DNA of 64,000 bases, from assembly GCA_002689445.1 (NCBI GenBank), contig NZGC01000084.1:8723-72722 (forward strand), in the 5' to 3' direction. The first letter of the stretch is position 1. Each line of letters opens with the position of its first letter. Origin of the DNA: Gammaproteobacteria bacterium (GTDB lineage Bacteria > Pseudomonadota > Gammaproteobacteria > Pseudomonadales > Azotimanducaceae). The notes under the pieces were generated by a model. The model saw nothing but the letters and a program-made list of their open reading frames with translations. It made no database searches and had not been told where the DNA came from. Shown here in pieces: positions 3,254 to 29,395 of the stretch. The position numbers and the translations under genes were made by a program.

Positions 3254-3356
3254 CCCAGCGCGCGATAGTAAAACGTATTTACCTGAAAAAAACTACCGTG
3301 CATGATGTTGGGTGAGCGTATTACGTCGCTACGGTCCTAACAGTCGAGACAAACCT

Positions 3357-4457
3357 ATGCAAAAACCCGCCATGAACGAACTGGGTTTTTATACCCTTGC
3401 AGGCGCACCCTCATCACCCCGCGATCTGATTGAAGAGGTCCGTATGGCCGAGGCGATGGGCATTGGTGCTTGTTTCATCTCGGAGCGTTTTAACATTAAA
3501 GAAATCGCCGCACTCTCAGGCGCGGTTGGCGCGATCTCCGATCGCATCGGAATTGCCACTGCAGCGACCAATCAAAACACTCGACACCCTGTGGTGACCG
3601 CCGCCTTTGCCAGCACCATGCATTTTTTGACCCAGGGCCGCTTTTCTCTAGGGCTTGGTCGAGGCATTGAGCCATTGTTTAAGGCTTTTGGTCTGCCTTC
3701 GATCACAACCCGAGGGATGGAAGACTTTGCCCAACTGATGCGTCGATTACACCGGGGTGAGACCATTGTTAATCACACGGGCCCGGCTGGAAGCTGGCCT
3801 GCCCTTCGTCTTGACCCTGATTTTGACGAGCATATTCCGCTAACGCTCACCGCCTTCGGTCCCAATTCATTGGCGCTCGGCGGACGAGAGTTTGATGCCG
3901 TGGTTTTACACACATTTTTTACCGACGAAACCACACAGCGCGCGGTTGAGTCGGTAAAGTCAGCGGCTATCGCCGCTGGCCGAGACCCGAGTTCAGTCCG
4001 AGTCTGGTCATGCCTGGCCACCATTGGCGATCATTTGCCTGAAGCGCTACAACTGAAAAAACGGGTCGGCCGTATGGCGACCTACTTGCAAGCCTACGGT
4101 GACCTGATGGTCCGCACCAATGAGTGGGACCCAAAAGTATTGGCGAGGTTTCGGTCCCATGATCTGGTCCAAAATTTTTCCGGCGCCCTCGATCAAAAAG
4201 CGTCGACCGAAGAGCTAGAAATCGTGCAAACCCTCATTCCAGACGAGTGGCTGGCGCCTGCCGCCTATGGCAGCCCCGAACAATGCGTTGCAGCGATCAA
4301 CCACCAGTTGGATCTGGGCTGTGATGGCGTCATTTTGCATGGCGCCTCACCCAAAGAGCTTGAACCGATCGTAGCCGCTTATGCAGACCAACGGGATCAC
4401 GATCGTTTCAAAAATTTGCCCGCTAATCCTGCGCTTGCTCCGGCAACTGTCAGTTAA
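3357..4457 (+). CDS. Luciferase-like (LLM-class) flavin/F420-dependent oxidoreductase
   Basis: LLM core motif 'QGRFSLGLGRG' and N-terminal 'MGIGACFISERF'. The ORF track starts at GTG 3312. The first ATGs are 3357 and 3372 (MNELGFYTLAG), so the start is uncertain. Confidence 0.8.
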   Translation: MQKPAMNELGFYTLAGAPSSPRDLIEEVRMAEAMGIGACFISERFNIKEIAALSGAVGAISDRIGIATAATNQNTRHPVVTAAFASTMHFLTQGRFSLGLGRGIEPLFKAFGLPSITTRGMEDFAQLMRRLHRGETIVNHTGPAGSWPALRLDPDFDEHIPLTLTAFGPNSLALGGREFDAVVLHTFFTDETTQRAVESVKSAAIAAGRDPSSVRVWSCLATIGDHLPEALQLKKRVGRMATYLQAYGDLMVRTNEWDPKVLARFRSHDLVQNFSGALDQKASTEELEIVQTLIPDEWLAPAAYGSPEQCVAAINHQLDLGCDGVILHGASPKELEPIVAAYADQRDHDRFKNLPANPALAPATVS

Positions 4458-5493
4458 GTACCTCAAGAGACTGTGCCATCGCGATACTCCGTTTGGCCAT
4501 CGCCATAAACATATCGTTGCCGCGCTCAGTTTCGCCAACGATCATTGACGCAATGAGCGCCATGATCATTCCTGCCGGCGCATAGTTACGGTAATAGAGA
4601 AACGCTTGATCAAAGCTCAAGGTAATTCCGTAACTGCTCAGCACCTCCAGATACAATCGAAGCAAGGCCCGCTCCTCAGAATCTCGCACCTCTGGCGTTA
4701 GCGAAGTGCCCATAAAGTAACTCGCGTCGTTTAAGGGGCACCCCATAGTTAACGACTGCCAGTCGACAACCGTCAAAGGATAGGGACCACCAAACATCAT
4801 ATTGTCTAAACGGTAGTCCACATGAATTAATACCGGCGGCTGATTCTGATAGACCTTTTGATAATCTGGAAGAATTTCTAGCAGTTGTTCGGTCGCGCGC
4901 ACTTCTGCTTCTGACAATCGCGCTGCATATCTCGATAAATACCCAGGCATTAAGTTTTGGTAAAGCCCGGTAAGCATCTGCGTATCTTCCCGAGCGCTGC
5001 CGCCCCCGAGTAATTCTATCTGAGCAAGTTCACTATCGCCCCATTTTGGTCCCTGCAGATGAGCCAATTGCTCCAGCGCCAGTGCTGCCTGATCAGCAGA
5101 GCAGCCAGCCAATTGATCCCCCTGCACACCCGGACTGAGGTCCTCCATAAGCAGAACAAATTCATGGGATTCAAGATCGATATCAGCATGAAAAATCTCT
5201 GGAGTCTGAATACTCACCTGCGATTGGAGGGTCTGGTAAAAAAACACCTCACGAACATAGTTGCGTTGCATAATACCGGTTTGCTTACTTACCGGATCAA
5301 GCGAGGGAAATTTTCCGACGATCGAATTTGGCCCTCCCTCACCTGAGAGCGCGAAGCGCACGTTTTCTCCGACCTGGCCCGTGCCGATGGATTCCGCCTC
5401 TAGGCTGTTAACTTGGCTTCCGGGATAGTTTTTTTGCAGCACTTGAGTCAGCCAGCTCGCATCAATTTGGCTAGGATTGGAACGAAGATCCAT
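4450..5493 (-). CDS. Phosphotransferase (APH / choline-ecdysteroid kinase-like family)
   Basis: 347 aa with the catalytic loop 'LIHVDYRLDNMMF' (HxDxxxxN). AGGAG lies upstream of ATG 5493. The 3' end overlaps the convergent LLM gene by 8 nt. Confidence 0.8.
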   Translation of the reverse strand: MDLRSNPSQIDASWLTQVLQKNYPGSQVNSLEAESIGTGQVGENVRFALSGEGGPNSIVGKFPSLDPVSKQTGIMQRNYVREVFFYQTLQSQVSIQTPEIFHADIDLESHEFVLLMEDLSPGVQGDQLAGCSADQAALALEQLAHLQGPKWGDSELAQIELLGGGSAREDTQMLTGLYQNLMPGYLSRYAARLSEAEVRATEQLLEILPDYQKVYQNQPPVLIHVDYRLDNMMFGGPYPLTVVDWQSLTMGCPLNDASYFMGTSLTPEVRDSEERALLRLYLEVLSSYGITLSFDQAFLYYRNYAPAGMIMALIASMIVGETERGNDMFMAMAKRSIAMAQSLEVLN

Positions 5494-5553
5494 CTATCTC
5501 TCCTCTCTCGGATGACTCAAGCCTTGTTCGCTAAGTCGTGTCTGGTTCGCAGG

Positions 5554-6333
5554 CTAGGACGACAATCGAGCTGCGAGACCGCCTAATGATCTGATCAGCC
5601 TGCGCGGTTGTAGGCGCCCCAATGTCATGGCAGCCTGATTAAGCTGCCCGGGGATACAAACAACCTCGCCTCGCGCCATGGCTGATAGGGCATGGCGCGC
5701 CACCGCTTCGGGCGTATCGATGAAAAAGTCAGGTAAGGCCTCTACAATTTCCGGTACGACACTCTCGGTTTGCGTGACACCTGGGCACAAGGCCGTTACT
5801 GATATCCCTGTCCCTTTCAATTCCTCACTCAGCGCTTCGGTGAGAGATATCAAATACGCTTTGGTCGCCGCGTATTGCGCCATTCTTGGCACTGGCTGAA
5901 AACCTGCTATCGAACACACATTCAATATCCTACCTGACCCTTTAGCTTTCATCGCCGGCAGACAGTGATGCATAAGCCTCACCGGAGCGGTCATGTTCAA
6001 ATACATCAGCGCTTGTTGCCTCGCCACGTCCTCTACAAACCAACCCGTCGCGGCCACGCCAGCGCAATTAACCAAAATATCGATTGATGACGCTTGTGCC
6101 TCCAGCCTTTCAATCAAATGCGAGACCCCTGTTTCTGTCGACAGGTCTGCTGGAATTACCGAGACGGTCACTTTTGCAGACAATCGCTCGGCCAAAGCTT
6201 GCAACCGATCCGCTCGGCGGGCCGTTAACACCAAATCTGACCCCTGGTCAGCCAAGGCGATTGCCAAGGCTTCGCCAATTCCACTGGATGCACCCGTTAC
6301 CAGTGCTCGATTTTGTTTAAACGACAAACTCAC
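5554..6333 (-). CDS. Short-chain dehydrogenase/reductase (SDR)
   Basis: 'TGASSGIGEALA' Rossmann motif and 'YAATKAY' YxxxK catalytic motif. GTG start at 6333 is preceded by GAGGAG. Confidence 0.9.
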   Translation of the reverse strand: MSLSFKQNRALVTGASSGIGEALAIALADQGSDLVLTARRADRLQALAERLSAKVTVSVIPADLSTETGVSHLIERLEAQASSIDILVNCAGVAATGWFVEDVARQQALMYLNMTAPVRLMHHCLPAMKAKGSGRILNVCSIAGFQPVPRMAQYAATKAYLISLTEALSEELKGTGISVTALCPGVTQTESVVPEIVEALPDFFIDTPEAVARHALSAMARGEVVCIPGQLNQAAMTLGRLQPRRLIRSLGGLAARLSS

Positions 6334-6392
6334 ACCCGCTCCTCAGCCCGGATTTAATCGTACCCCGGTTGTTCTTACCATTTAACGCTGGC

Positions 6393-6462
6393 CATCCCAT
6401 CCCATCCCATCTCATCTCATCTTATCTAATCTAATCTAATCTAATCTAATCTAATCTAATCT
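6393..6462. repeat. Graded pentanucleotide microsatellite: (CATCC)3 (CATCT)3 (TATCT)1 (AATCT)7
   Basis: Read directly from the sequence: 14 head-to-tail 5-nt units (70 nt). It lies between the crotonase stop (6482) and the SDR start (6333), about 60 nt upstream of the SDR start codon. Confidence 0.95.
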
Positions 6463-6481
6463 TGTTCAGCACAAACAATTT

Positions 6482-7243
6482 TTACAACAAAGAGAAGTCA
6501 GGCGGTCTCTTCGCTTTGAAGGCCAGCAGTGCCTCTTTATTGGCAGGCCCTCCCGCCAGTTGGTCAAGCGCCGCGTTTTCCAGATCAACGGCGACCTTAA
6601 GCTCATCATTACGGCTACGAGTCATCAACGCTTTGGTCTTCATCAATGACGCTATCGGCAGCTCAGCCAAGACTTCAGCGCGCCGAGTGACTTCTCCCAA
6701 AAGCTCGTCATCAGGATACACTGTATGTATCAAACCATACTCTGAGGCCTTTTCTGCGCTTAACCATTCTGATGACAGCAAAAACCAGCTCGCACGCTGA
6801 TACCCCATTAGTCGCGCGAAGGTGACGGTCGAGGCCGCTTCAGCGGTCAGCCCAAGAGCTGAAAATGGGCAGCGAAACCGCGACGAGGCCGCCGCGAGCG
6901 CGGTGTCCGCGAGACCCAGCAACGTGCAACCAATGCCGACACCCAAGCCGTTCGCCGCGATCAAAAAGGGTTTAGGGAAATCAATCACGGCGTGAAGCAA
7001 GCCCTTGAGGCCATGCCGCGGCGTGGCCTGGTTGCCACCCATCGACTTCAAATCCGCACCGGCACTAAACGCTCTACCGGCACCCGTTAACACCAACACT
7101 TTCGTGGCCTGATCCACCGCCGCTTCGATAAAAGCATCTGCCAGCTCGTCCATCAACTCGGCGCTAAAGGCATTCAGCGAGTCCGGTCGATCCATGATCA
7201 CCCAACGTACCGCCCCTCTCATTTCCTGACGCACAACCTTCAT
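6482..7243 (-). CDS. Enoyl-CoA hydratase/isomerase (crotonase family)
   Basis: 'LTGAGRAFSAGADL' oxyanion-hole motif. The ORF track starts at TTG 7285. ATG 7243 (MKVVRQEMRG...) has GAGGAG 6 nt upstream and is preferred. Confidence 0.9.
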   Translation of the reverse strand: MKVVRQEMRGAVRWVIMDRPDSLNAFSAELMDELADAFIEAAVDQATKVLVLTGAGRAFSAGADLKSMGGNQATPRHGLKGLLHAVIDFPKPFLIAANGLGVGIGCTLLGLADTALAAASSRFRCPFSALGLTAEAASTVTFARLMGYQRASWFLLSSEWLSAEKASEYGLIHTVYPDDELLGEVTRRAEVLAELPIASLMKTKALMTRSRNDELKVAVDLENAALDQLAGGPANKEALLAFKAKRPPDFSLL

Positions 7244-7286
7244 TAAATTCTCCTCTGGCTTTTTTCGATAGGCGGGCTCCGCCAAC

Positions 7287-8435
7287 CTAGGATGATCTCG
7301 CTTTAAAAGGTGAAAATTGCTCTAAATAATCGATTTCTTCGGCGATGTGCCCGCGCTCTTGATCTAAATAGCGCCCCACGGCCTCTCTGAACCCCTCATG
7401 GACAATCCAATGAGCACTATAAGTCTGACTGGGTAAGTATCCTCGAGCAAGCTTATGTTCGCCTTGAGCACCCGCCTCTACTCGATTCAATCCGTGAGTA
7501 ATCGCAAACTCAATTGCTTGGTAATAACAGACTTCAAAGTGTAGAAATGGGTGGTCTTCAATACATCCCCAATTGCGACCAAACAAGCAGTCGCCACCAA
7601 TGAAGTTGATCGCACCTGCGACATAGCGCCCCTCTCGACGACACATCACCAATAAAATGCTATCGGCCATCGTCTCACCGATGAGACTAAAAAATGCACG
7701 ATTGAGGTACGCAGACCCCCACTTTCGGGAGCTGGTATCGGTGTAAAACCGATAGAAGGCATCCCAATGCGACTCTAAAATGTCGCGCCCCGTAAGACAC
7801 TCGATGGTTACGCCACCTGCGACCGACAATTTCCGTTCGCGTTTGATGTTTTTGCGCTTCTTGCTGGACAAATACGATAAGAACTCTTCAAACGAACCAA
7901 AGCCCTCATTTTGCCAGTGGTACTGCTTATGGGTTCGTAATAACCATCCCTCATCACCCCGGCGGCGCCAAGCTGTTTCATCGAGAAAATTGAGGTGCAC
8001 CGAGGAGATATTCAACTCCTCTGCCATTTGCGCGGCGCCTGCCACCAACGCACCTTCGTAACGGGCGTCCGAGGTCAGCACTCTTCGGCCTGTCACCGGG
8101 GTGAAGGGCACAGCCGATAACAGTTTGGGGTAATACCGCCCCCCAGCCCGCTCCAGCGCATCAGCCCAACTGTAGTCGAAGATGTACTCGCCTTGCGAGT
8201 GCCCTTTCACATAGAGTGGCATCAACCCCAGGGGGTTGGCTTGATCATCCTCAAGGACTAAGTGATACGGCATCCAACCCGTTTCGCTTGAAACCGAGCC
8301 ACTCGCCTCTAACGCATTTAAAAACGCGTAGGATAAAAAAGGGTCCCGTGGGACCCCTTCTTGTTCAGCGAATGGGTCCCAAACCTCGGGCCCAATTTCT
8401 GCGATTCCCTGAACCGCTTTGACTTGCCACGTCAT
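7287..8435 (-). CDS. FemAB-like / DUF482 (GNAT-fold) protein of unknown substrate
   Basis: 'DPFLSYAFLNALEASGSV...GW.P.HL', 'GEYIFDYSWADA' and 'YYPKLLSAVPFTPVTG' resemble the COG3146/DUF482 family as I recall it. I moved the start to ATG 8435 (MTWQVKAV...) to remove the overlap with the upstream LLM. Confidence 0.7.
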   Translation of the reverse strand: MTWQVKAVQGIAEIGPEVWDPFAEQEGVPRDPFLSYAFLNALEASGSVSSETGWMPYHLVLEDDQANPLGLMPLYVKGHSQGEYIFDYSWADALERAGGRYYPKLLSAVPFTPVTGRRVLTSDARYEGALVAGAAQMAEELNISSVHLNFLDETAWRRRGDEGWLLRTHKQYHWQNEGFGSFEEFLSYLSSKKRKNIKRERKLSVAGGVTIECLTGRDILESHWDAFYRFYTDTSSRKWGSAYLNRAFFSLIGETMADSILLVMCRREGRYVAGAINFIGGDCLFGRNWGCIEDHPFLHFEVCYYQAIEFAITHGLNRVEAGAQGEHKLARGYLPSQTYSAHWIVHEGFREAVGRYLDQERGHIAEEIDYLEQFSPFKARSS

Positions 8436-8451
8436 ACTCGCAATGCCTGGG

Positions 8452-9486
8452 TTAGAGGATTTCCGACGCGATGAGTTCGAGCGCTTCAGGTTGGCCCGCA
8501 CCAATCAACATAGAACCCACATGGCCGTTGGCTCCTGCGGTTTTCCAGCGCTTTAATTGCTCTTTGATGTGTTCGGCAGGCCCTACCAGGTGACACGCAT
8601 CAACCAACTCATCAGGCACTGCAGCCATGGCCTCATCTTTGCGGCCTGCGAGGTAGTGGTCTTGGATGGCTGCCGCAGCATCCTCAAAACCCAGCGCTTT
8701 CGTGTAATCATTATAAAAATTCTTATCACGAGCGCCCATGCCACCAATATAGAGCGCCATATTACCTTTGATTGGCATACGACAAGCCTCCAGGTCATCT
8801 CCCATGATACAGGTGACAAAGGGAGCAACATCGTAGTCAAGCATTGATCTTCCGGATTTGTTTAAACCTTTCTCAATGTTCGGGCTCAACACCTGGGGTT
8901 TGTCCGGGTCCATCCAAATGGGGAACACACCATCAGCCACTTCAGCGCTGCCAGCCAGACCAGCCGGCGTAATCGAAGCGGTGTATATCGGAATTGAGGT
9001 GTCTGCTTGCAAGATACTTTTCAACGATTTACCCAATCCAGTGCCATCGGCGCCGGCATACGGGAGAGAATAATGAAAACCCTCATGCTCTACAGGGGCT
9101 TCCCGCGCAAAAATCTTCTTCATAATACTGACGTACTCTTTCACCCGCGTGACCGGACGCCCGTAAGCGACGCCATGCCAGCCCTCGACCACTTGCGGCC
9201 CTGAAGCGCCTAAACCCACGATGAATCGGCCATTCGATAGCTGATTTAAGGTCATGGCTGTCATTGCAGTACAGGCCGGTGACCGCGCAGGCATCTGCAT
9301 AATCGCTGTGCCAACTTTGATCTTTGAGGTTTGGGCAAGTATCCAAGCGGCGGGCGTTACCGCATCGGAACCATAAGCCTCAGCAGTCCAGAGAGAGTCA
9401 TACCCTAAACTCTCAGCCATCTTGATTCGATCAATATCGATATTCATCATTTTACCGCTGTACCCGGCCAGTATTCCTAACTTCAT
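8452..9486 (-). CDS. LLM-class (probable F420-dependent) oxidoreductase
   Basis: 344 aa with 'LGYDSLWTAEAYG' and 'NGRFIVGLGASG'. ATG is preceded by AAGGAA. Confidence 0.85.
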   Translation of the reverse strand: MKLGILAGYSGKMMNIDIDRIKMAESLGYDSLWTAEAYGSDAVTPAAWILAQTSKIKVGTAIMQMPARSPACTAMTAMTLNQLSNGRFIVGLGASGPQVVEGWHGVAYGRPVTRVKEYVSIMKKIFAREAPVEHEGFHYSLPYAGADGTGLGKSLKSILQADTSIPIYTASITPAGLAGSAEVADGVFPIWMDPDKPQVLSPNIEKGLNKSGRSMLDYDVAPFVTCIMGDDLEACRMPIKGNMALYIGGMGARDKNFYNDYTKALGFEDAAAAIQDHYLAGRKDEAMAAVPDELVDACHLVGPAEHIKEQLKRWKTAGANGHVGSMLIGAGQPEALELIASEIL

Positions 9487-9640
9487 AATCGTTTCCTTGT
9501 GTGTCTGTTGCGTTTATAGCGGTCTGGTCAATTTAGCGAGGTCACCCTAGCTTACCGTCATGCTCCTCTTATTCGGCAATCCAGCGCTCCATCATCCATT
9601 CACAGCTGATGACTGACTCGCTGATCACTGCCTTCAGATC

Positions 9641-10648
9641 TCAAGATGCGTTCAGTTTTTGCAATAGTGTCCGACTGTGATCCTCATCTCGACCTGCAAA
9701 ATTACCCATCGTCCGGTCAACCAAACTACCGTACCGCGATTTAAACAGGTCGACCGCAGCCTCCGGCTCGCCCACCACCGCGAATTCTGAAAGGATATCG
9801 TCGGTAATCAAGTCGGCCATATCGTCCCAACGACCTTGCTTACTCAGACCATTGAGTTCAGGCTGCAAATCGCCCCAGCCATGAATACCCAGCACAGGTG
9901 CGTAGGCGGGAGTCGAGCCATAAAAAGCGATCTGCTTTTTGACCGCCTGTTTATTCGTTTCGAACGCTTCCTCGGTGTTACCTGTTACCACAAACCCAGG
10001 ATAGCTCACTTCAAAGTCAGACCGATCACGGCCGGCTTTCGCTAACCCCTTCTCCACAGCGGGTAGCGTTACTTCTCTCAGATACTTCTCTGTTGTGAAA
10101 GCATGAATGATCACACCATCAGCGACTTCCCCAGCAACCTCAGTCATGAGGGGACCCACCGCCGCCAAAAATACTTTGGGTGCGCCGTACTGGGTATCCA
10201 AGGGTGTAAACATCGGTGTCATGAGGGAGTGGGTATAAAATTCACCGTCAAACTGCAGAGGCTGACCTTCATGCCAACAAGCCCAGATTGCTCGCATCGC
10301 CGAAATAAACTCTCGCATTCGCGCAGCCGGCTTGGACCAAGGCATGCTAAACCGCTTGGTGATATGAGGCCGAATTTGGGAGCCTAAACCCAAGATAAAC
10401 CGACCTTTAGAAAAACTGTTGAGGTCATGGCCAATGTTCGCCAAATTCATGGGCGTTCGCGAGAAAGCTACTGCAATCGATGTCGTTAATTCAATCGCCT
10501 GAGTTTCCTGCGCGGCCAGCAGCAACGGAAAAAAAGGATCATGAGAGGTCTCAGCAGTTACCGCGCCGTTATAACCGAGGCTTTCTAACTTTGCCCCCTG
10601 CCGACCGGCCTCGCCCAAATCTCCCATCAAACCGCCATCTATCTTCAT
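9641..10648 (-). CDS. LLM-class (probable F420-dependent) oxidoreductase
   Basis: 335 aa with 'KGRFILGLGSQ'. ATG is preceded by TAGGAG. It starts 9 nt after the stop of the upstream LLM. Confidence 0.85.
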   Translation of the reverse strand: MKIDGGLMGDLGEAGRQGAKLESLGYNGAVTAETSHDPFFPLLLAAQETQAIELTTSIAVAFSRTPMNLANIGHDLNSFSKGRFILGLGSQIRPHITKRFSMPWSKPAARMREFISAMRAIWACWHEGQPLQFDGEFYTHSLMTPMFTPLDTQYGAPKVFLAAVGPLMTEVAGEVADGVIIHAFTTEKYLREVTLPAVEKGLAKAGRDRSDFEVSYPGFVVTGNTEEAFETNKQAVKKQIAFYGSTPAYAPVLGIHGWGDLQPELNGLSKQGRWDDMADLITDDILSEFAVVGEPEAAVDLFKSRYGSLVDRTMGNFAGRDEDHSRTLLQKLNAS

Positions 10649-10657
10649 AGTCGTCTC

Positions 10658-11653
10658 CTAGAACGTAAACTGATTACCCGTAAAAGCCTTGTAAGTCGCT
10701 TGAGCATGTTTGCCCGATACACAAGAGATGATGTGCGTCGTAATACCGTCTTCAGCGTAGGCGCGAATCCGATCTTGGCATTCTTCTTGACTGCCGATGA
10801 TGGCAATGTCATCTACCAACTGATCATCCAGCGCTGATGTTGTCTTCTGACGATCTTTAGCAGCCCAGCCCTCACGAATCGCCTCAGCCACCTCTTCGTA
10901 GCCTGACCAGGCTAGAAAAGCATTATATACAGGGGTTGCGTAATAAGGCGCGAAGGCCGCTCTAATCATATCTCTGGCGCTTTCCTTATCATCCGTTACG
11001 ATGACTTGATGACGACAGACGACCTCGACATCAGCCAATGCTTTGCCAGCTCGTTCCGCACCTGCCTTGATGTGGGTCATCATTCTTGGCAAGGCATCCT
11101 TCGGGAACAAATTTAAGATGACGCCATCGCTATACTCAGCTGCTGTTTCAAGCATCTTGCTACGCAACGCTGCCATGTAGACTGGTTGAGCACCATCGGG
11201 TAACGGCAATTGACGGTAACCTCGACTGGTCACCGTATCGCCTTGAAAATCGGACTTATCGCCTCGAAGCATACTTTGGATCAGTTCTACCGTCTCTTTC
11301 ACCCGAGTCAGAGGCTTTTCAAAAGTCAAACCGTGCCAGTTTTCCATCATCGTTTGGCTTGACGAACCCAACCCTAAAATAAATCGGCCTTCAGATAACT
11401 GATGTAAAACATGGGCGGTCGACGCTAAGACTGCGGGAGTCCTTGAAAATACCGGGATAATCGCGGTTCCGATACGGCATCGCTGCGTATTGAGTGCGAC
11501 CGCTGCAGCCGTTGTCAGCGCATCCACGCCAGAACTGTCAGCAAACCACAAATCATCATAGCCCTCAGCTTCCGCCCACTTAGCCATTTCTATGGTGCCC
11601 TCAACCCCTCGTGGGTCGGGCAGCGTCAATGCAGTTCTTTGAGGTATCGCCAT
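10658..11653 (-). CDS. LLM-class (probable F420-dependent) oxidoreductase
   Basis: 331 aa with 'EGYDDLWFADS' and 'EGRFILGLGSS'. ATG is preceded by CAGGAG. Confidence 0.85.
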   Translation of the reverse strand: MAIPQRTALTLPDPRGVEGTIEMAKWAEAEGYDDLWFADSSGVDALTTAAAVALNTQRCRIGTAIIPVFSRTPAVLASTAHVLHQLSEGRFILGLGSSSQTMMENWHGLTFEKPLTRVKETVELIQSMLRGDKSDFQGDTVTSRGYRQLPLPDGAQPVYMAALRSKMLETAAEYSDGVILNLFPKDALPRMMTHIKAGAERAGKALADVEVVCRHQVIVTDDKESARDMIRAAFAPYYATPVYNAFLAWSGYEEVAEAIREGWAAKDRQKTTSALDDQLVDDIAIIGSQEECQDRIRAYAEDGITTHIISCVSGKHAQATYKAFTGNQFTF

Positions 11654-11781
11654 TATTTTTCTCCTGTGCCTTTGGGTCTGGGCGCTTCGCCCAAAGCCCT
11701 AGATTCCATCAGTGATTTTCCCGTTACTGAACACGGCTTATCGTGGACGATTGGCCTGCTCAGCCCCCTAAATGGATCATT

Positions 11782-11855
11782 TGTTTACATCCGTCCCTTT
11801 GAGACCCGTCCGTTTCGTATCGTCTGTTTTGTATCCGTCTGTTTTGTATCCGTCC
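11782..11855. repeat. Array of about five 13-15-nt tandem repeats; the last two are identical (TGTTTTGTATCCGTC x2)
   Basis: Perfect units at 11825-11839 and 11840-11854. Degenerate units lie upstream (gtttcgtatcgtc, ctttgagacccgtcc, tgtttacatccgtcc). On the minus strand the unit reads GACGGATACAAAACA. Confidence 0.85.
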
Positions 11856-11874
11856 GCGCGATATCACTTATTTA

Positions 11875-11902
11875 CTGCAGTCCGCTGGGCGGGCAGTTTT
11901 TT
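11875..11902 (+). terminator. Rho-independent terminator-like hairpin on the plus strand
   Basis: ctgc-agt-ccgc-tgg-gcgg-gcag followed by TTTTTT gives a 4+4 bp GC stem with a 3-nt bulge. No annotated plus-strand gene lies upstream, so this implies an unannotated plus-strand transcript or is fortuitous. Confidence 0.3.
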
Positions 11903-12347
11903 GGACAACAGCCTTTTGTCGATTTTCTTTTTCACTCCGTTCTCGGCCAATCCCTCATCCGATCCATTCCTTCGCAAAATCTCGTTGTCCCGCTTCGATC
12001 CCTCTCAACCACTGCTCCTGATCAAGCGCGTCTCATTCGAATCCGAGCACTCACCTCGGGGACGGCCTAGCCTAACACGGTTAATCTAACCCTGCCTGAT
12101 CCTTTCAGACTTCGCTTCAAAGCAGCACTGACAGCCTCTGTACTGCTCCGCTCTCAGTGTGCTCGCTGCCAGATCGCCTTTGTCGGCTGCGAGTCCGCCG
12201 ATACCCCGGTTTTTTCGAGTGCTTTTGGACTTTCTCAAACCTTTCGCCGTTTGCCCCGCTTACGGTTCTGGCAAGTGGCAATGTCATTCGAGACGATTGC
12301 CCCAATTACCCTCCCTCAAAATATCGCCAAGGCCTGCAAAGATTGGT

Positions 12348-14843
12348 CTAAATAATCTCGGCACTCGATATTTGATCTTCAGGTACCAAGCCCGGTCTCA
12401 CCAAGGCTTCTTTCTTCTGCCTGGTTCGCTCATAACGCTTTGCAGAGGTGTAGATTGGTTCTTTGAGTATCGCGGCACCCATCGATTTTTGATGCTGAAC
12501 TTCGGTAACTTCGCTGTAATCGGTTGCTCGCTGCCTTGGTGTTCTACCCGCCGCCCGAATGAGGGCCTCCATGGCTTCGGGAGAAGTTTCTTGGCCATGC
12601 GCGGCACCCGCAGCCCGGGTGATCGTCTCATTCATCAAGGTTCCACCCAGGTCATTGACGCCGGCGTTGAGGCAAGCCTTGACCCCCTCGTGCCCAAGTT
12701 TCGTCCACGAGGCCTGAATGTTCTTGAATACTGGGTTCAACGCTAGCCGCGAAATCGCATGGATTAAAACGGCCTCACGAAACGTTGGTCCCTTGCGCGC
12801 TTGCCCCTTGAGATACATCGGCGCTTCCATATGAATAAAAGGCAAAATCACGAATTCGGTAAAGCCGCCGGTTTTCTCTTGTAACGCGCGTATTCTTAGC
12901 AAGTGTCGGGCAACGTGTTCATAACGTTCGATATGCCCATACATGATGGTTGCGGTGGTGTTAAAACCAACCCCGTGGGCTGCCTCCATCACCTCAAGCC
13001 ATTGACTGGTGTTGATTTTATCCGGGCACAGTGATGCCCTAACCTCATCGTCAAGAATCTCAGCCGCCGTGCCCGGTAACGTTCCTAATCCCGCTTCCTT
13101 CAACGCAGAGAGGTATTCCGGTAAGGACTGCCCTAGCGTCTTTGCACCCTGCCAAACCTCAAGCGGCGAAAACGCATGTATATGCATTTCGGGCACGACT
13201 TGCTTGATGGTGTGACAAATATCAAGGTAGGTTTGGCCGGTATACTCAGGGTGGATGCCACCCTGCAGACACACCTCGGACGCACCCCGATCAAAGGCCT
13301 CTCGTGTGCGACGCATAATTTCTTCATGCGATAAGTCGTAGGGGCGGCCGCGCAAGTTCTCGCTCATTTTTCCTTTGGAAAACGCACAAAATTGACACTT
13401 AAAATAACAAACATTCGTGTAGTTGATATTTCGATTAACGCAATAAGTCACTTCATCACCACACACATCACGACGAATCGCATCGGCGGCTTGACAGACG
13501 TGAGTCACTTCATCACCTCTGGCCTGAAACAAGCGCACAATCTCAGCTTCAGTTAATGCCAGGCCCTCGCTGGCTTTACCTAAAATGCGCGATAGTTCGT
13601 TACTGGCAGGCCTCTTAGGTATTTGAGTAACCCTCGCTAAATCTGCCTCTGGAGGTTCCGGTGTTTCACCCGCAGCCCAGGATTCACCTCGAACAAATCC
13701 CTCGCCATCAACGGTACCCAAGACCAAAGGCTGCAACTCGGGATCAACCCAACGGTCTAACTGCTGAACGTGGGATGGATAGAGCGCCAAACGCTCGACC
13801 AGCACCTTACCTTCTCGAGCCGTCTCTTCGGCTAGATTCTGCAAGTGCGGCCAAGGTGCTTCGGGATTGACGAAGTCCGGGGTGACAGGCGAGACACCGC
13901 CCCAATCGTTAATGCCTGCATCGATCATCCGATGGAAGACCCCAGGACTCAAATTTGGCGGGACTTGAAGATTCATCTCGCTTCCAAACATCAAACGAGC
14001 TTGGGCAATGGTCCATAACAGTTCATTTAAATCCGGCTCCGGCGCATCTTTCATCAAAGTGCCGGGTTTCGCTCTGAAATTCTGGATGATCAACTCTTGA
14101 ATATGACCATAAGGCTCATTGGCCGCCCGCAGCGCCAATAGCGACTCGATGCGCTCGCGTCGGGTCTCACCGATCCCAATCAAAATACCCGAGGTAAATG
14201 GCACGCCGGCTTCACCCGCGAGCCTTAAGGTCTCAAGCCGCCGAGAAGGCACCTTATCGGGTGACCCATAATGCGGCATACCCTTTTCGGTCAATCGGTC
14301 CGAGGCGGACTCAAGCATAATGCCCATCGAGAGTGAAACTTTACGGAGCGACTCAAACTCAGACGCCGTCATAAGGCCTGGATTCAAATGGGGAAAGAGG
14401 CCGGTTTCGTTCAGCACTAGCTCTGCCATATCATGGAGATAACTTAACGTCGAATCTTGACCTAATTCCTTCAACCCATCTCTTGCCGCTTTGTATCGCT
14501 CTTCGGGTTTATCGCCCAAGGTAAACAGAGCTTCTTTACAGCCCGCTTTAGCACCTTCAGCGGCAATTTTGAGCACTTCGTCCGGGGTCAAATAAGGTGC
14601 TTTTACTTTTCTGGGTACCTGCGCAAAAGTGCAGTAGTGGCACACATCTCTGCATAGGTGCGTTAAGGGTATAAAGACTTTTCTGGAATACGAGATGGTA
14701 TTGGGATGGCTGAGATCCCGAATTCCACCGGCGACCGACAGCAACGTATTGGTGTCGGAAAATTCTGACAATGCCAACGCATCATGATCAGCAAGCCCTG
14801 CTCCGGCTGCAGCTTTCTCTAAAATCTCTGTTACTGATGCCAT
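12348..14843 (-). CDS. fbiC: Bifunctional FO synthase (7,8-didemethyl-8-hydroxy-5-deazariboflavin synthase, CofG+CofH fusion)
   Basis: 831 aa with two radical-SAM CxxxCxxC clusters (CRDVCHYC near the N-terminus, CYFKCQFC mid-protein). Size and two-domain layout match FbiC. ATG 14843 directly follows the cofC TAA. Confidence 0.93.
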   Translation of the reverse strand: MASVTEILEKAAAGAGLADHDALALSEFSDTNTLLSVAGGIRDLSHPNTISYSRKVFIPLTHLCRDVCHYCTFAQVPRKVKAPYLTPDEVLKIAAEGAKAGCKEALFTLGDKPEERYKAARDGLKELGQDSTLSYLHDMAELVLNETGLFPHLNPGLMTASEFESLRKVSLSMGIMLESASDRLTEKGMPHYGSPDKVPSRRLETLRLAGEAGVPFTSGILIGIGETRRERIESLLALRAANEPYGHIQELIIQNFRAKPGTLMKDAPEPDLNELLWTIAQARLMFGSEMNLQVPPNLSPGVFHRMIDAGINDWGGVSPVTPDFVNPEAPWPHLQNLAEETAREGKVLVERLALYPSHVQQLDRWVDPELQPLVLGTVDGEGFVRGESWAAGETPEPPEADLARVTQIPKRPASNELSRILGKASEGLALTEAEIVRLFQARGDEVTHVCQAADAIRRDVCGDEVTYCVNRNINYTNVCYFKCQFCAFSKGKMSENLRGRPYDLSHEEIMRRTREAFDRGASEVCLQGGIHPEYTGQTYLDICHTIKQVVPEMHIHAFSPLEVWQGAKTLGQSLPEYLSALKEAGLGTLPGTAAEILDDEVRASLCPDKINTSQWLEVMEAAHGVGFNTTATIMYGHIERYEHVARHLLRIRALQEKTGGFTEFVILPFIHMEAPMYLKGQARKGPTFREAVLIHAISRLALNPVFKNIQASWTKLGHEGVKACLNAGVNDLGGTLMNETITRAAGAAHGQETSPEAMEALIRAAGRTPRQRATDYSEVTEVQHQKSMGAAILKEPIYTSAKRYERTRQKKEALVRPGLVPEDQISSAEII

Positions 14844-15530
14844 TTAAATCTCTCCTGTGATCCTCTGCAGACGATCAATCACATCTATGGATATTGCATA
14901 ACGATAAGTATGGGACCCAGCCCCTTGAAATGCCAGTCGCCCCATCAAAGCCTTCAGATCGCTTGGGGTATCAATATCAAGGCCAAGCCCTGGCAACTTG
15001 AGTACGGTCGGATTGACACCCACGTTGTGTGCCGCTGCGAGGTGCTTCCTAAAGCTGTCAACCCCAAATTGGAAGGGAATCAAGTTGGGAGGAGCTGCGA
15101 GCAAGCAATTGGTCCCCCCCAGGTCGGCAGCCGGCACCATCGATAAGCCAGCACCTCCCGAGAAAGTGCCGTCCAAAACCACCTCGAGTTCCTCAGCGGT
15201 CACCAAGGGAACATCCCCTGGCAAGAACAACAACCGCTCGGTACCCGCCTCCGCCAGGGTCGATGCGGCATGCGTAACCGCAGCGACTAACCCTGGCTGT
15301 TCAGGTTCAGCCAAGGTACCCAGCTGATAGTGAGCAGCCATCTCGATCGCCGCTGCGTCCTTCGTCACGAGTAAACACTGATCAACGAGTGGACAGGCCT
15401 CAATGGCGATTAACACGTCTTCTAACATCGCATAGCTGAGCGCCTTACGCTCGGCGTCGGTTAACAGCGCTGACAATCGCTGTTTAGCATTGTCAAAAGA
15501 CTTAACGGGAATCACCGCGCAAGTTTTCAC
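14844..15530 (-). CDS. cofC: 2-phospho-L-lactate (or PEP/3-PG) guanylyltransferase
   Basis: 228 aa with 'AVIPVKSFDNAKQRLS...ML.DVL' and 'FLPGDVPLV', the CofC/FbiD pattern. The GTG start overlaps the cofD stop (GTGA). Confidence 0.85.
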   Translation of the reverse strand: MKTCAVIPVKSFDNAKQRLSALLTDAERKALSYAMLEDVLIAIEACPLVDQCLLVTKDAAAIEMAAHYQLGTLAEPEQPGLVAAVTHAASTLAEAGTERLLFLPGDVPLVTAEELEVVLDGTFSGGAGLSMVPAADLGGTNCLLAAPPNLIPFQFGVDSFRKHLAAAHNVGVNPTVLKLPGLGLDIDTPSDLKALMGRLAFQGAGSHTYRYAISIDVIDRLQRITGEI

Positions 15531-16501
15531 TGTGCGAGCGACTCACTGAATGCGAGCACGTCTTTGGCCAAGGCTTGCTTGTCTTCGGCCGATTTCATCA
15601 CCGTCCCTGTAATCAAGGGTTCCATACCCAGCGCCGCAACCTCGGCCGCTGCATTTGCATCAATTTCGTCAAGAACGAAACCATCAACCAAGCCAGGGTA
15701 TCGCTGGTGGTAAAACTCAGCCACCGCCAGCGCGGTGCTTGGCAGCGCCAATTCTTGCATCATTTTAGCCGCGGGGCCCTTCAACGCCTCACCACCGACT
15801 ATCGGAGAAACCAGTACCACCGGGCAATTCATCGCTTTCAATTTAAGCCAGCTATCGGCCAGCTCTAAAATCGGGGCGACGCTGACAAAGGGGTTGGACG
15901 GACAAACCACAATTGAGGACAATGCATCGGCGTCCAGCAATGCTTCGAATTCCGGAGCCAACTTAGCTTCTGCAATGCCCTTAAAACGCACCCCGGATAT
16001 TTTTGGCTCACATCGATCACGAACAAAGTAGTGTTGGAACGCTAATATATCGCCGCTTTGACACTCTATTTCAGTCGCGACGCTATCATCAGTCATCGGG
16101 AAGACCGCCACCTCAACGCCAAGCTGACGCATCAATTTCGCGGTGACTGCGCTTAGACTTTCGCCTTCCGCGAGCATCCGGGTCCTCATCACATGGGTCG
16201 CTAGGTCACGATCACCCAGTCCAAACCAGGTTTCCCCACCTAACCGTTTCATGGCATTCAAAAACTGCCAAGTTTCGCCCTCTTGTCCCCAACCTACGGT
16301 TGCGTTCGCAAGACCTGAGAGGGTATACATCAGCGTATCCATATCTGGACAAATTCTTAGACCTAAATGGTCAAAATCATCGCCTGTATTAACGACCACC
16401 GTCAGCGCTTCGGAGGGCAAAACATCCCGCAATCCTACCGCCAGCTTTGCGCCCCCGACACCGCCGGATAGGGCTAAAACATTTGGCGACGTTAACGACA
16501 T
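15527..16501 (-). CDS. cofD: LPPG:FO 2-phospho-L-lactate transferase
   Basis: 324 aa with N-terminal 'LSGGVGGAKL' and overall CofD/FbiA-like sequence. ATG start. Confidence 0.9.
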   Translation of the reverse strand: MSLTSPNVLALSGGVGGAKLAVGLRDVLPSEALTVVVNTGDDFDHLGLRICPDMDTLMYTLSGLANATVGWGQEGETWQFLNAMKRLGGETWFGLGDRDLATHVMRTRMLAEGESLSAVTAKLMRQLGVEVAVFPMTDDSVATEIECQSGDILAFQHYFVRDRCEPKISGVRFKGIAEAKLAPEFEALLDADALSSIVVCPSNPFVSVAPILELADSWLKLKAMNCPVVLVSPIVGGEALKGPAAKMMQELALPSTALAVAEFYHQRYPGLVDGFVLDEIDANAAAEVAALGMEPLITGTVMKSAEDKQALAKDVLAFSESLAQ

Positions 16502-16607: not shown

Positions 16608-17387
16608 TTACCTGAACATGTCCATCGCTTTGGGTCGAAGCAGCGGCTTGACGCCTTGCAAATCTGCTGACTCTGGGGCTTTCGGAGCATAACCACGCAC
16701 CCTCACTACCGGCGCTTTTTCTGTGGTCTGTCCCATGACCAATGATGCACCTGCTGCGAGTTCATCAGCCGCGGCCACTTGGGTCACGATCAATTCGCGA
16801 CCGTAAATATCGTGTCCGCCGACATAGTCCTCGAGACTGGTCATGCCTGCGACACCGATGGCGAGCCCCACGGTACCCATTCTCCAGGCTCTACCGATCG
16901 AATCGTTGATGATAACAGCAACATCGATACCACACCGATCCGCAATGGTTTGTCGCAATCGTTGTGCCGATGCATCGGGATCAACCGGCAACAGTAAACA
17001 TAGGTCGTCTCCCTCCACACCCGCTTGATAAATATTGGATTGATCAATCCCTGCATTTGCAGCGACAAAACCCAATCGATGCTCAACAATGAGGACGCCA
17101 GGCCGCTTGCGAACCACCTCATTGGATTCATCAAGGATGACCTGGACTTTCCTCGGATCCTTGTCGACCTCCTCTCCTAAGCGCATGGCAGCCTCACTGG
17201 GCTCTACATCCGCGAGATTGACGTAACGGTTTTCCGCTTTCGAAACAATCTTTTGCGCGAGCACCAGCACGTCTCCATCCCTTAAATCTTCTTCCATCGA
17301 TTCAAGACCGGCCAATATCAAGTCGATCAGGTCATCGCCCGGCTCGACCATCGGGATTTTGTCGACCGCAACCAGAGATAACTGCAT
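16608..17387 (-). CDS. cofE: F420-0:gamma-glutamyl ligase (single-domain CofE)
   Basis: 'LVLAQKIVSKAE', 'GFVAANAGID.SN' and 'IINDS.GRAWR.G' are CofE hallmarks. I moved the start to ATG 17387 (MQLSLVAVDK...), which overlaps the npdG TGA (TGATG). The protein is about 259 aa and has no FbiB-type C-terminal nitroreductase domain. Confidence 0.9.
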   Translation of the reverse strand: MQLSLVAVDKIPMVEPGDDLIDLILAGLESMEEDLRDGDVLVLAQKIVSKAENRYVNLADVEPSEAAMRLGEEVDKDPRKVQVILDESNEVVRKRPGVLIVEHRLGFVAANAGIDQSNIYQAGVEGDDLCLLLPVDPDASAQRLRQTIADRCGIDVAVIINDSIGRAWRMGTVGLAIGVAGMTSLEDYVGGHDIYGRELIVTQVAAADELAAGASLVMGQTTEKAPVVRVRGYAPKAPESADLQGVKPLLRPKAMDMFR

Positions 17388-18058
17388 CAATCTGCTGCCG
17401 ATTCGCCCGTAATCACCAACCCAGCACCATTGATTTTGTGGTGTCGATTGATCGTGATCAAAATTGAGGTTAAGGCTTCTGCAGCGGCAGCATTGGCGAT
17501 TGGGCCGGCATGCCAACCTTTCAAACCCAGCGCTTCGATCAGCTCAATGACAGTGTCTCGGGCTGCTCGCTTATTGCCAGTGACCAACACATCACAAGCA
17601 ATGGCATGATCCTCTTGTAAATGCATCGCACCAACATTCTGAAAAGCTGACACCACAAAGACTTCTTCCCCTAAATGGTTCTGTGCTTGTTGACCCGCGG
17701 ACCCCGCTTCAGGCAACTGGACCGTCCCTACTTTCGGCGGCATAAGAGGAACGGTCACGTCGATTAACACTTTTCCGGCCAACGCATGTTTTACCGAATC
17801 GAGCGTGCTTAATTGATGGGCGAAAGGGACCGTCAGCACCACCAGGTCGGCTTGCTCTGCTGCGCTTGCGTTATCAAGACCCGTGACGTTCAAGTCTGCA
17901 AACTCGGCAAGTAGCGCGGCAGCTGCCTCCTGGCCCTTCTCAAGGGTTCGGCTGCCAATTAAAATGGCATAGCCCGCTCGCGACCACTGTCTCGCTAAGC
18001 CGCCGCCCAAGTCACCGGTACCGCCCAAGATTGCGATGGTTTTAATACTTTCACTCAT
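17387..18058 (-). CDS. npdG: NADPH-dependent F420 reductase
   Basis: 223 aa with 'IAILGGTGDLGGGLA' Rossmann motif. Size and context match NpdG/Fno. GGAGAGG lies upstream of the ATG. Confidence 0.85.
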   Translation of the reverse strand: MSESIKTIAILGGTGDLGGGLARQWSRAGYAILIGSRTLEKGQEAAAALLAEFADLNVTGLDNASAAEQADLVVLTVPFAHQLSTLDSVKHALAGKVLIDVTVPLMPPKVGTVQLPEAGSAGQQAQNHLGEEVFVVSAFQNVGAMHLQEDHAIACDVLVTGNKRAARDTVIELIEALGLKGWHAGPIANAAAAEALTSILITINRHHKINGAGLVITGESAAD

Positions 18059-18378: not shown

Positions 18379-18969
18379 CTAACGCAGACCGTGAATTAAG
18401 GTGATGCATTGCGAGGCGTAGAGCATCGTTTTACCCAACGAGATGGGTGAGAGACCTTTTCTGATCAACCCTTTAACCGTATTTTTAGGCATCACTAATT
18501 GGTCTGTTAGGGCAAATACGCCTGCCTCAATCGGCGCAAGGTGCGAGGCAGGTTGGCCTTTGGGATCGAGCAAATAACCGGGTCTATCCTTTGTCAGCTC
18601 ATCCAGTAATCGCTCAAAACTCTTACCTGAAACCCCAATACCATTCCCAGCTTCCCGGGATTCATCTTTTGCAAGCGCTCTGCCCTTTGAAAGCGCGTCA
18701 CTACAACTCTTCAGCAGCGCCGCCTCAGTTAGCCCACCCAGGTTTCCCAAAAGGCCTCCATCAAAGGTCAAAACCCGACTGAAGTCTGCTGATTTCTCGA
18801 GGACCAAATGTAGCCGGGTATCATCCCGATGACCGTTGGCAACAAACAGCGCATTGACGATCATGGCGGGTATAAACTCTACGTGAGCACCGAGCCCAAG
18901 TGCCGCCAAGAACTGCTGCGGCTCAACCGGCGTTTTGCGACACCGAACCACAAATTCAATTGCCGCCAT
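18379..18969 (-). CDS. Hypothetical protein resembling the TrmY/DUF358 SPOUT methyltransferase family
   Basis: 196 aa. The pattern 'A.F..NGHR.D..L.LVL....R.L.F.G..L..L...E.A...' followed by C-terminal 'F.L.D......K.L.....ISLG...L.ASQCI.LIH' recalls archaeal tRNA pseudouridine-54 N1-methyltransferase. This assignment is from memory only. Confidence 0.4.
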   Translation of the reverse strand: MAAIEFVVRCRKTPVEPQQFLAALGLGAHVEFIPAMIVNALFVANGHRDDTRLHLVLEKSADFSRVLTFDGGLLGNLGGLTEAALLKSCSDALSKGRALAKDESREAGNGIGVSGKSFERLLDELTKDRPGYLLDPKGQPASHLAPIEAGVFALTDQLVMPKNTVKGLIRKGLSPISLGKTMLYASQCITLIHGLR

Positions 18970-29256: not shown

Positions 29257-29395
29257 CACCAATACTCTCTCTCGAAAACTCCTAGTATATGCTAGCCATA
29301 GCAGCAGCGTCGATTAGGAGAGCCATTAAGCACTGTTCGTCTCAGTTCTCATTTAAGACGAGGGTCTCTTGTCTAAAATCCATGGGCAGCGCAGA

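Follow-up and report, generated by a model that had tools for sequence, protein, structure and literature searches.

Organization of the F420 locus

The 64,000-nucleotide stretch of contig NZGC01000084.1 analysed here (GenBank assembly GCA_002689445.1, positions 8,723 to 72,722 of the forward strand; hereafter the window) derives from an uncultured marine gammaproteobacterium of the Azotimanducaceae and has a G+C content of ~52%. It carries genes for the biosynthesis and recharging of the cofactor F420, followed by genes for luciferase-like monooxygenase (LLM) family proteins, a FemAB-like protein, a crotonase-fold protein resembling enoyl-CoA hydratases (ECH), a short-chain dehydrogenase/reductase (SDR), an APH-type small-molecule kinase and two thioesterases. 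All genes named in an earlier annotation made from the letters alone (the original prediction), including six LLM genes in 64 kb, were confirmed by open reading frame (ORF) calls and Pfam/NCBIfam profile matches. That prediction took the run for a single pathway; gene-order conservation and expression point instead to two separate units, probably an operon that makes, recharges and uses F420 (unit A) and an inserted accessory cassette (unit B). The two units and their flanks are arranged as follows, with profile scores given against the family cut-off where one applies.

18379..18969, minus strand: TrmY-like SPOUT protein (NF002560, 117.8, under the cut-off of 183)
17387..18058, minus strand: npdG/Fno, NADPH-dependent F420 reductase, which recharges F420 (TIGR01915, 189.8; cut-off 149.8)
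16608..17516, minus strand: cofE, F420-0:L-glutamate ligase, single-domain (TIGR01916, 268.1 over residues 47-302; cut-off 180.65)
15527..16501, minus strand: cofD, 2-phospho-L-lactate transferase (TIGR01819, 283.4; cut-off 257.45)
14844..15530, minus strand: cofC, guanylyltransferase (TIGR03552, 154.3; cut-off 105)
12348..14843, minus strand: fbiC, fused CofG/CofH FO synthase (NF006687, 1135; cut-off 1018)
11654..12347, minus strand: non-coding fbiC-LLM1 spacer of 694 bp, particular to the source genome
10658..11653, minus strand: LLM1, predicted F420-type, Rv3093c subfamily (TIGR03841, 240.6; cut-off 213.65)
9641..10648, minus strand: LLM2, predicted F420-type, MSMEG_2256 subfamily (TIGR03617, 468.9; cut-off 278.15)
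8452..9486, minus strand: LLM3, predicted F420-type, Rv3520c subfamily (TIGR03559, 370.1; cut-off 335)
7287..8435, minus strand: FemAB_like/DUF482, tandem-GNAT protein (PF04339, 511 bits)
6482..7243, minus strand: crotonase-fold protein, ECH (PF00378, 154 bits; no NCBIfam equivalog reached)
5554..6333, minus strand: classical SDR (PF00106, 165 bits; TGxxxGIG and YxxxK motifs)
4450..5493, minus strand: APH/EcKL-type small-molecule kinase (PF02958 and PF01636, E ~1e-14)
3312..4457, plus strand: LLM4, predicted F420-type, TIGR03857 family (390; cut-off 218.4)
2762-3253 and 2303-2752, minus strand: tandem hot-dog (4HBT/PaaI-type) thioesterases (PF03061, both)

FO synthase, CofC, CofD, CofE and Fno are all present and each scores above its NCBIfam cut-off; no dehydro-F420-0 reductase (FbiE or FbiB's C-terminal domain) was found among the annotated ORFs of the window. 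The longest cofE ORF opens at TTG and overlaps npdG by 130 nt, as it does in most relatives, and the family match begins at residue 47, so that the real start is probably internal, further downstream. The original prediction placed LLM1-3 directly downstream of fbiC: strand and order are as described, but the 694-bp spacer intervenes. The gap between LLM1 and LLM2 is exactly 9 nt, as stated there. All genes from LLM1 through the kinase lie on the minus strand, in agreement with a co-directional run, whereas LLM4, encoded on the plus strand, runs convergently towards the kinase gene and overlaps it by 8 nt. The proposed common core motif also holds in part: GRF(I/S)(L/V)GLG is found in LLM1-4, the leading N in LLM3 only.

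Conservation and expression of the two units

Gene order was compared by tblastn of 18 window proteins against 80 loci that had been retrieved with LLM2, on contigs representing one genome per species. These relatives are marine Pseudomonadales metagenome-assembled genomes labelled HTCC2089/'Candidatus Azotimanducaceae', OM182 and K189A. About 35 of the 80 loci preserve the order TrmY-like-npdG-cofE-cofD-cofC-fbiC-LLM1-LLM2-LLM3-FemAB_like; they are those in which LLM2 reaches ~75% identity or more. In related loci npdG is 78-96% identical. Every gap of unit A measures 10-50 nt in L008, L010, L013, L015, L032 and L033. The attachment of LLM1-3 to the F420 operon in ~35 genomes is the reverse of what would be expected if gene order were not conserved and these genes occurred equally in genomes lacking F420 biosynthesis. 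Whereas LLM1-3 and FemAB_like are thus kept with the F420 genes, the set ECH-SDR-APH-LLM4 occurs in only 12 of the 80 loci, all close relatives (L001-L007, L014, L020, L023-L025). Two further loci (L026 and L029) have SDR-APH without ECH or LLM4, and the four-gene set is absent from ~20 genomes that retain the unit A operon. In six loci that lack unit B (L015, L016, L022, L030, L031 and L035), the PaaI pair comes immediately after FemAB_like, so that the four-gene set looks inserted into an older junction. The PaaI pair is an ancestral neighbour of FemAB_like that lies outside the cassette and shows no link to F420.

Near-identical sequence is present in eight marine metatranscriptomes, for which assembled RNA contigs and contig depth were used. 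Single RNA contigs cover 8400-11289, 9341-11535 and 8141-9352, so that one transcript carries LLM1-3 together with the beginning of FemAB_like. Across the eight metatranscriptomes LLM1-3 reach a contig depth similar to that of cofE and npdG, ~9-10 in X1 and X3. It falls sharply at ~8236 and is 0-3 over 4450-8236, with zero across the kinase in X12 and X13. Unit B is barely expressed.

FemAB_like follows LLM3 in the ~35 loci and is the last conserved gene of unit A. Its AlphaFold2 model (predicted local distance difference test score, pLDDT, 81; predicted template-modelling score, pTM, 0.82) has a predicted tandem-GNAT fold like that of FemX and FemA. A Foldseek search with the model returned FemX at the top (E 1e-13, template-modelling (TM) score 0.57-0.63), then Sbb17/Sba18, FemA and MprF, the structural matches overall having TM scores of 0.5-0.64 at an alignment identity of 9-16%; no solved structure, of the FemX type or other, was matched by sequence. 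A protein search gave only relatives of at least 64% identity, and more distant contexts were obtained by tblastn against plasmids. Homologues of 34-58% identity lie on replicons of Methylobacterium, Sinorhizobium, Sphingomonas, Ralstonia, Pseudomonas aeruginosa, Halomonas and Azospirillum, and the three neighbourhoods inspected (Sphingomonas, P. aeruginosa and Azospirillum, 36-49% identity) contain no F420 or LLM gene. An action of FemAB_like on F420 itself, for instance on its tail, was considered and rejected as unsupported, the inspected homologue neighbourhoods being free of F420 and LLM genes. The attachment of FemAB_like to the operon is real within the marine clade but shows no link to F420 chemistry.

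Homologues of the attached LLMs also occur in other surroundings. At 67-73% identity LLM2 occurs in two other contexts, one near genes for a wax-ester synthase, a phasin and a CoA-transferase and the other in the second clade described below. The actinobacterial homologues of LLM2 and LLM3 that were inspected have as neighbours thiolase, hydroxyacyl-CoA dehydrogenase, MaoC, CoA-transferase, ECH, SDR and thioesterase genes. A second gammaproteobacterial clade (L071, 1208-14083; L054-L079) groups five F420-type LLMs together, one Rv3520c-type, one Rv3093c-like, two MSMEG_2256-type and one Rv2161c-type, accompanied by a divergent APH gene, an ECH-like gene, a sodium:solute symporter and a histidine phosphatase (His_Phos_1 in L071); no F420 biosynthesis gene lies within 10 kb of this cluster.

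At the upstream end of unit A, the gene for the TrmY-like SPOUT methyltransferase, which is of archaeal type, lies next to npdG on its upstream side in 25 or more related loci (39-70% identity), at a distance of merely 44-59 nt in some of them. The 694-bp spacer contains 15-nt tandem repeats and no credible ORF, and blastn finds no match to it in the 80 related loci, whose fbiC-LLM1 gap measures 12-345 nt. RNA contigs lie over it in three metatranscriptomes (X1, 11821-12389; X3, 11265-11810; X5, 11530-12208). Rfam (gathering threshold) and tRNA scans of the window returned no matches, and consensus scans for promoters and terminators did not exceed shuffled sequence in the number of sites.

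F420-type LLM proteins and the kinase neighbourhood

All of LLM1-4 (120-265 bits) and LLM6 (165 bits) match the TIM-barrel profile PF00296 (Bac_luciferase) over their full length. The original prediction raised the choice between F420 and flavin mononucleotide (FMN) as cofactor, and subfamily hidden Markov models place the LLMs in F420-specific rather than FMN families: five of the six (LLM1-4 and LLM6) exceed curated F420-specific NCBIfam/TIGRFAM cut-offs, while LLM5 matches F420-type models only, all under cut-off. No FMN family (for example alkanesulfonate or nitrilotriacetate monooxygenase) is approached, the best scores being 18-52 bits against cut-offs of 245-518; for LLM1 the best FMN family reaches 52 bits against 518. 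At E<=1e-10, LLM1-3 have only Mer and FGD as relatives of solved structure; both are F420 enzymes, no FMN enzyme appears among them, and Mer is the best solved match for all three. The Mer and FGD models themselves give the LLMs scores far under cut-off. Pairwise identity among the six is 21-31%, which identifies them as old paralogues and not recent duplicates.

Database matches agree with this assignment. On plasmids, homologues of LLM1-3 were found in Actinomycetota and haloarchaea only. Actinobacterial plasmid homologues of the LLMs are 37-56% identical, those of LLM2-4 being annotated as F420-dependent LLMs; LLM2 shares 56% identity with Rhodococcus plasmid genes whose annotation is LLM class F420-dependent oxidoreductase, and its next matches (Rhodococcus and Mycobacterium, ~55% identity) carry the annotation TIGR03617. 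LLM1-4 and LLM6 are accordingly described here as F420-type, their cofactor use being predicted from family models and co-occurrence. The two LLM genes outside the run lie where they had been reported.

21656..22561, minus strand: LLM5, divergent (best TIGR03620, 89.7; cut-off 219.8)
57193..58119, plus strand: LLM6, predicted F420-type, Rv2161c subfamily (TIGR03619, 256.2; cut-off 166.9; PF00296, 165 bits)

LLM6 comes just after an SDR gene, the two ORFs overlapping (56531-58119), and has an SCP-x/Ltp-type thiolase (54428-55579) and a carboxylesterase (52484-53959) nearby; this region may be a further small lipid-related unit.

Among the unit B proteins, the kinase keeps the motifs HVDYRLDN and VVDW invariant in 12 orthologues and is 32-35% identical to actinobacterial and Sphingobium phosphotransferases. 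Its sole NCBIfam match is LxmK (E 7e-5) and its best solved match is 3dxp (E 8e-7), an APH-like protein deposited as 'putative acyl-CoA dehydrogenase'; no similarity to the ACAD11 kinase domain was detected at E<=0.01, and its AlphaFold2 model reaches a pLDDT of only 49. The crotonase-fold protein has T and F at the positions of ECHS1 E144 and E164, which we take to be the catalytic glutamates, and the same holds for its 13 orthologues (14 of 14 proteins). Lacking both hydratase glutamates, it is unlikely to be a simple hydratase; it also reaches no NCBIfam hydratase equivalog cut-off. The SDR is 42% identical to an SDR encoded beside a kinase on the Mycobacterium avium plasmid pP7a. The cassette contains no acyl-CoA dehydrogenase gene, the nearest in the window lying at 28099-29262 and 44005-45162. 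A pentanucleotide microsatellite (6393-6462) separates the crotonase and SDR genes. The metatranscriptome contig of a 99%-identical strain omits 40 nt there (6418 to 6459), or eight repeat units, from which it follows that the length of this tract varies among strains.

The pairing of a kinase gene with a TIGR03857 gene recurs well beyond the window. A tblastn search of 72,556 plasmids with LLM4 gave 13 records, which reduce to ten distinct loci after merging near-identical ones. Nine were inspected directly; in the tenth, a second Pseudonocardia plasmid, the kinase and LLM matches adjoin at the same spacing. An APH-family phosphotransferase gene lies 0-3 kb from the TIGR03857 gene in all ten loci, which belong to Actinomycetota and Sphingomonadales (Pseudonocardia, Rhodococcus pyridinivorans, M. 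avium, Novosphingobium, Streptomyces, Croceicoccus, R. rhodochrous, Rhodococcus DK180 and R. qingshengii). The kinase stands upstream of, downstream of, divergent from or convergent with the LLM gene, the last being the arrangement of the window, and at least two APH subfamilies are represented. Frequent neighbours are MaoC-type hydratase pairs or ECH, SDR, TetR and family III CoA-transferase genes, as well as aldehyde and alcohol dehydrogenases, P450 and a thiolase with an OB-fold partner. The M. avium plasmid pP7a repeats the window set, with LLM (30% identity), kinase (34%), SDR (42%) and ECH. LLM4 is 54-56% identical to the kinase-adjacent proteins of Pseudonocardia and R. pyridinivorans, a high value for different phyla.

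The kinase-LLM pair of Croceicoccus and Novosphingobium shares its plasmid with fbiC-npdG-cof genes, at a distance of 16-35 kb, and is part of a large catabolic island. This F420 island of ~45 kb, seen on Croceicoccus marinus pCME4A9I (98-137 kb; L104) and Novosphingobium resinovorum pSA2 (L105), contains several LLMs, Rieske oxygenases, a large FAD oxidoreductase, NTF2-fold proteins, sulfotransferases and many SDRs, together with a DUF1679-like kinase and a tyrosine-phosphatase-like gene. Its contents suggest catabolism of a steroid- or terpenoid-like compound.

Orthologues of LLM4 in other marine gammaproteobacteria (74-78% identity) occupy four contexts.

L106-L109 and L111: a conserved context unlike the window's, with a divergent SDR, LLM4, and a convergent class III aminotransferase-HAD hydrolase pair; no APH gene within 6-8 kb
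L110: ECH-LLM4-SDR among acyl-CoA dehydrogenases; no kinase
L112: APH-LLM4 beside an Ltp2/ChsH2-like thiolase; kinase present
L113: LLM4 convergent with an APH/EcKL gene; kinase present

A strict kinase-LLM4 pair was considered and rejected, there being LLM4 orthologues that have no kinase nearby. The kinase-TIGR03857 pairing is frequent, not obligatory.

Interpretation and comparison with known systems

The gene order and expression of the locus are best accounted for by two separate units. In unit A, fbiC, cofC, cofD and cofE would make F420 and Fno (npdG) would load it with hydride from NADPH, LLM1-3 being the operon's candidate resident consumers, Mer-like hydride transferases of three old subfamilies. 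As the operon shows no F420-reducing enzyme other than Fno, and no solved protein is closer than Mer, we infer that LLM1-3 work in the direction of reduction, as F420H2-dependent reductases, and the CoA-ester enzymes beside LLM2 and LLM3 homologues point to acyl-thioester or lipid-like substrates. The original guess of a CoA-linked or phosphorylated substrate is a plausible possibility in view of gene contexts in other phyla.

Unit B would carry out a stepwise conversion of a hydroxylated acyl-CoA-like substrate. The SDR would set the hydroxyl and the kinase would phosphorylate it, after which the crotonase-fold enzyme and LLM4 might process the phospho-intermediate with F420 as hydride carrier. 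Kinase-assisted breakdown of 4-hydroxyacyl-CoA is known for LvaA and LvaC of the Pseudomonas putida Lva operon and for mammalian ACAD10 and ACAD11 (PMC12440821). A second precedent for a kinase that readies the substrate of a redox enzyme is LxmK with the F420-dependent LLM LxmJ in class V lanthipeptide synthesis (PMC8498797). A tentative and rather doubtful extension is an F420-dependent version of the Lva and ACAD10/ACAD11 route, made up of the kinase and the TIGR03857 LLM with help from the SDR and the crotonase that lacks hydratase residues: the hydroxyl would be phosphorylated to a leaving group, the phosphate eliminated and the activated double bond reduced by F420H2. The net result would be reductive removal of the hydroxyl, an F420 LLM replacing the flavin acyl-CoA dehydrogenase. 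Common to both is the grouping of a small-molecule kinase, predicted to be of the APH family in the window, with an SDR and enzymes of CoA esters, and a close homologue of the window kinase in Sphingobium is followed by an acyl-CoA dehydrogenase gene. They differ in that the cassette has neither an acyl-CoA dehydrogenase nor an acyl-CoA ligase, that an F420-type LLM takes the place of LvaC and that the window crotonase is devoid of the hydratase residues.

Several observations weigh against this two-unit account or parts of it. The 80 loci were chosen through LLM2, which makes the link between LLM2 and the operon conditional on that choice, and LLM2 proteins at 67-73% identity are not beside F420 genes. 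LLM1 is missing in L021 and L030 and LLM3 in L035; the trio is therefore not obligatory. Contig depth is a crude measure of expression and RNA libraries may hold DNA, although a depth step within a few hundred bases is not expected from DNA carry-over. The use of F420 rests on family models and co-occurrence. As for unit B, LLM4 is on the opposite strand from the other genes and the gaps within the cassette are 58-239 nt. The kinase is lacking in two of the four gammaproteobacterial LLM4 contexts (L106-L109 with L111, and L110), and about half of the plasmid APH homologues have no LLM nearby. The absences of LLM1 and LLM3, together with the occurrence of the same subfamilies in FbiB-bearing mycobacteria, leave a low probability that an LLM serves as the missing dehydro-F420-0 reductase.

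The main alternative for unit B, itself not a likely one, is an FGD-like scheme in which the kinase phosphorylates an alcohol or sugar-like substrate, LLM4 binds this through the phosphate and oxidises it with reduction of F420, and the phosphate is afterwards taken off by a phosphatase. Among characterised LLMs, FGD acts on a phosphorylated substrate (PMC8498797), and candidate phosphatases recur in the neighbourhoods, with tyrosine-phosphatase-like genes near the kinase or LLM in R. pyridinivorans, Novosphingobium, Croceicoccus and R. opacus B4, His_Phos_1 in L071 and HAD genes beside LLM4 in L106-L111. However, LLM4 scores only 22.9 bits on the FGD model against a cut-off of 420, its neighbours are mainly CoA-ester rather than sugar enzymes and the window cassette includes no phosphatase.

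It is also unlikely that the clustering is coincidental, the LLMs being promiscuous detoxifying reductases, like many mycobacterial F420 enzymes, with no defined pathway or partners and their neighbours unrelated to them. The named LLM subfamilies are without known function, promiscuity is known for F420H2 reductases (PMC5449967), and orthologues of LLM2 and LLM4 do occur in several different contexts. Coincidence would nevertheless have to explain how the order of three distinct subfamilies is kept with gaps of 9-50 nt in ~35 species, and why the second gammaproteobacterial clade again groups LLM3, an LLM1-like protein and two copies of LLM2. The adjacency of the kinase in ten of ten plasmid loci, in varied orientations, is likewise hard to get by chance.

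The single pathway of the original prediction, in which the ten genes from LLM1 to the thioesterases act on one activated lipid-like or xenobiotic substrate, is improbable. Seven of the genes are adjacent and co-directional, every enzyme class fits acyl-CoA chemistry and RNA contigs read through the LLM3-FemAB_like junction. Yet only LLM1-3 and FemAB_like are conserved together; the kinase and CoA-enzyme genes form a separate cassette confined to a subclade, missing from ~20 genomes that keep the operon, six of which join FemAB_like directly to the PaaI pair. The occurrence of SDR-APH in L026 and L029 without ECH or LLM4, the sharp fall of RNA depth at ~8236 and the unrelated neighbours of FemAB_like homologues elsewhere also argue against it. 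Least probable by far is that the LLMs are monooxygenases of SsuD/NtaA type, dependent on FMN and only neighbours of the F420 genes, since, even though PF00296, common to all of them, includes FMN enzymes, the FMN-family scores are far under cut-off where F420 subfamilies are passed, no FMN enzyme is found among the solved relatives of LLM1-3 and no flavin reductase partner gene is seen in the run.

The two-unit locus can be compared with several described systems. Proteobacterial F420 clusters with Fno and attached LLMs have already been drawn (Ney et al. 2017, as summarised in Fig. 10 of PMC8498797). Like these clusters and the sphingomonad plasmids pCME4A9I and pSA2, the window has fused fbiC, cofC, cofD, a cofE of the single-domain kind and npdG, all encoded on the same strand and directly joined by one or more F420-type LLMs. 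Unlike the sphingomonad plasmids, where one TIGR03619 LLM follows cofC, it has TIGR03841, TIGR03617 and TIGR03559 LLMs after fbiC. It further differs from those clusters in its marine gammaproteobacterial host, a class not discussed in the 2021 review (PMC8498797), and in the bracketing of the operon by FemAB_like and TrmY-like genes. The locus is a new example of a known layout, set apart by the attachment of three LLM subfamilies and by the marine gammaproteobacterial family in which it is found.

The window proteins pass the cut-offs of actinobacterial LLM subfamilies (Rv3093c, MSMEG_2256, Rv3520c, MSMEG_2249 and Rv2161c). In M. tuberculosis the founding genes of these subfamilies are scattered over the genome, whereas the window has three LLMs attached to the biosynthesis operon. 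The LLMs share the TIM-barrel LLM fold with Mer, FGD and LxmJ. The last of these, an F420-dependent LLM, acts downstream of the APH-like kinase LxmK in class V lanthipeptide synthesis (PMC8498797); unlike that system, the run encodes neither a lanthipeptide precursor nor a lyase or cyclase and has CoA-ester enzymes as neighbours. A full-text literature search found no paper for the four TIGR accession numbers and none linking F420 to HTCC2089 or OM182, and papers that name the founding mycobacterial LLM genes assign them no function.

Why Proteobacteria make F420 was listed as an open question in the 2021 review (PMC8498797), and the interest of the locus is chiefly as a practical entry to what F420 does in these bacteria. 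The operon ties three uncharacterised F420-type enzymes to F420 biosynthesis and recharging across a family of abundant marine bacteria, and the metatranscriptomes show LLM1-3 to be expressed in the sea, which provides concrete proteins for screening. The recurrence of the kinase-TIGR03857 neighbourhood in Actinomycetota and Sphingomonadales, and in some of the marine Gammaproteobacteria, offers a lead that can be tested towards an F420 reaction coupled to a kinase, with culturable carriers of the pair in Rhodococcus sp. DK17, Croceicoccus marinus and Novosphingobium resinovorum. Should the F420-dependent counterpart of the Lva route prove true, F420 would acquire a first defined physiological role in Proteobacteria, and TIGR03857 a first known function in all phyla that carry the family.

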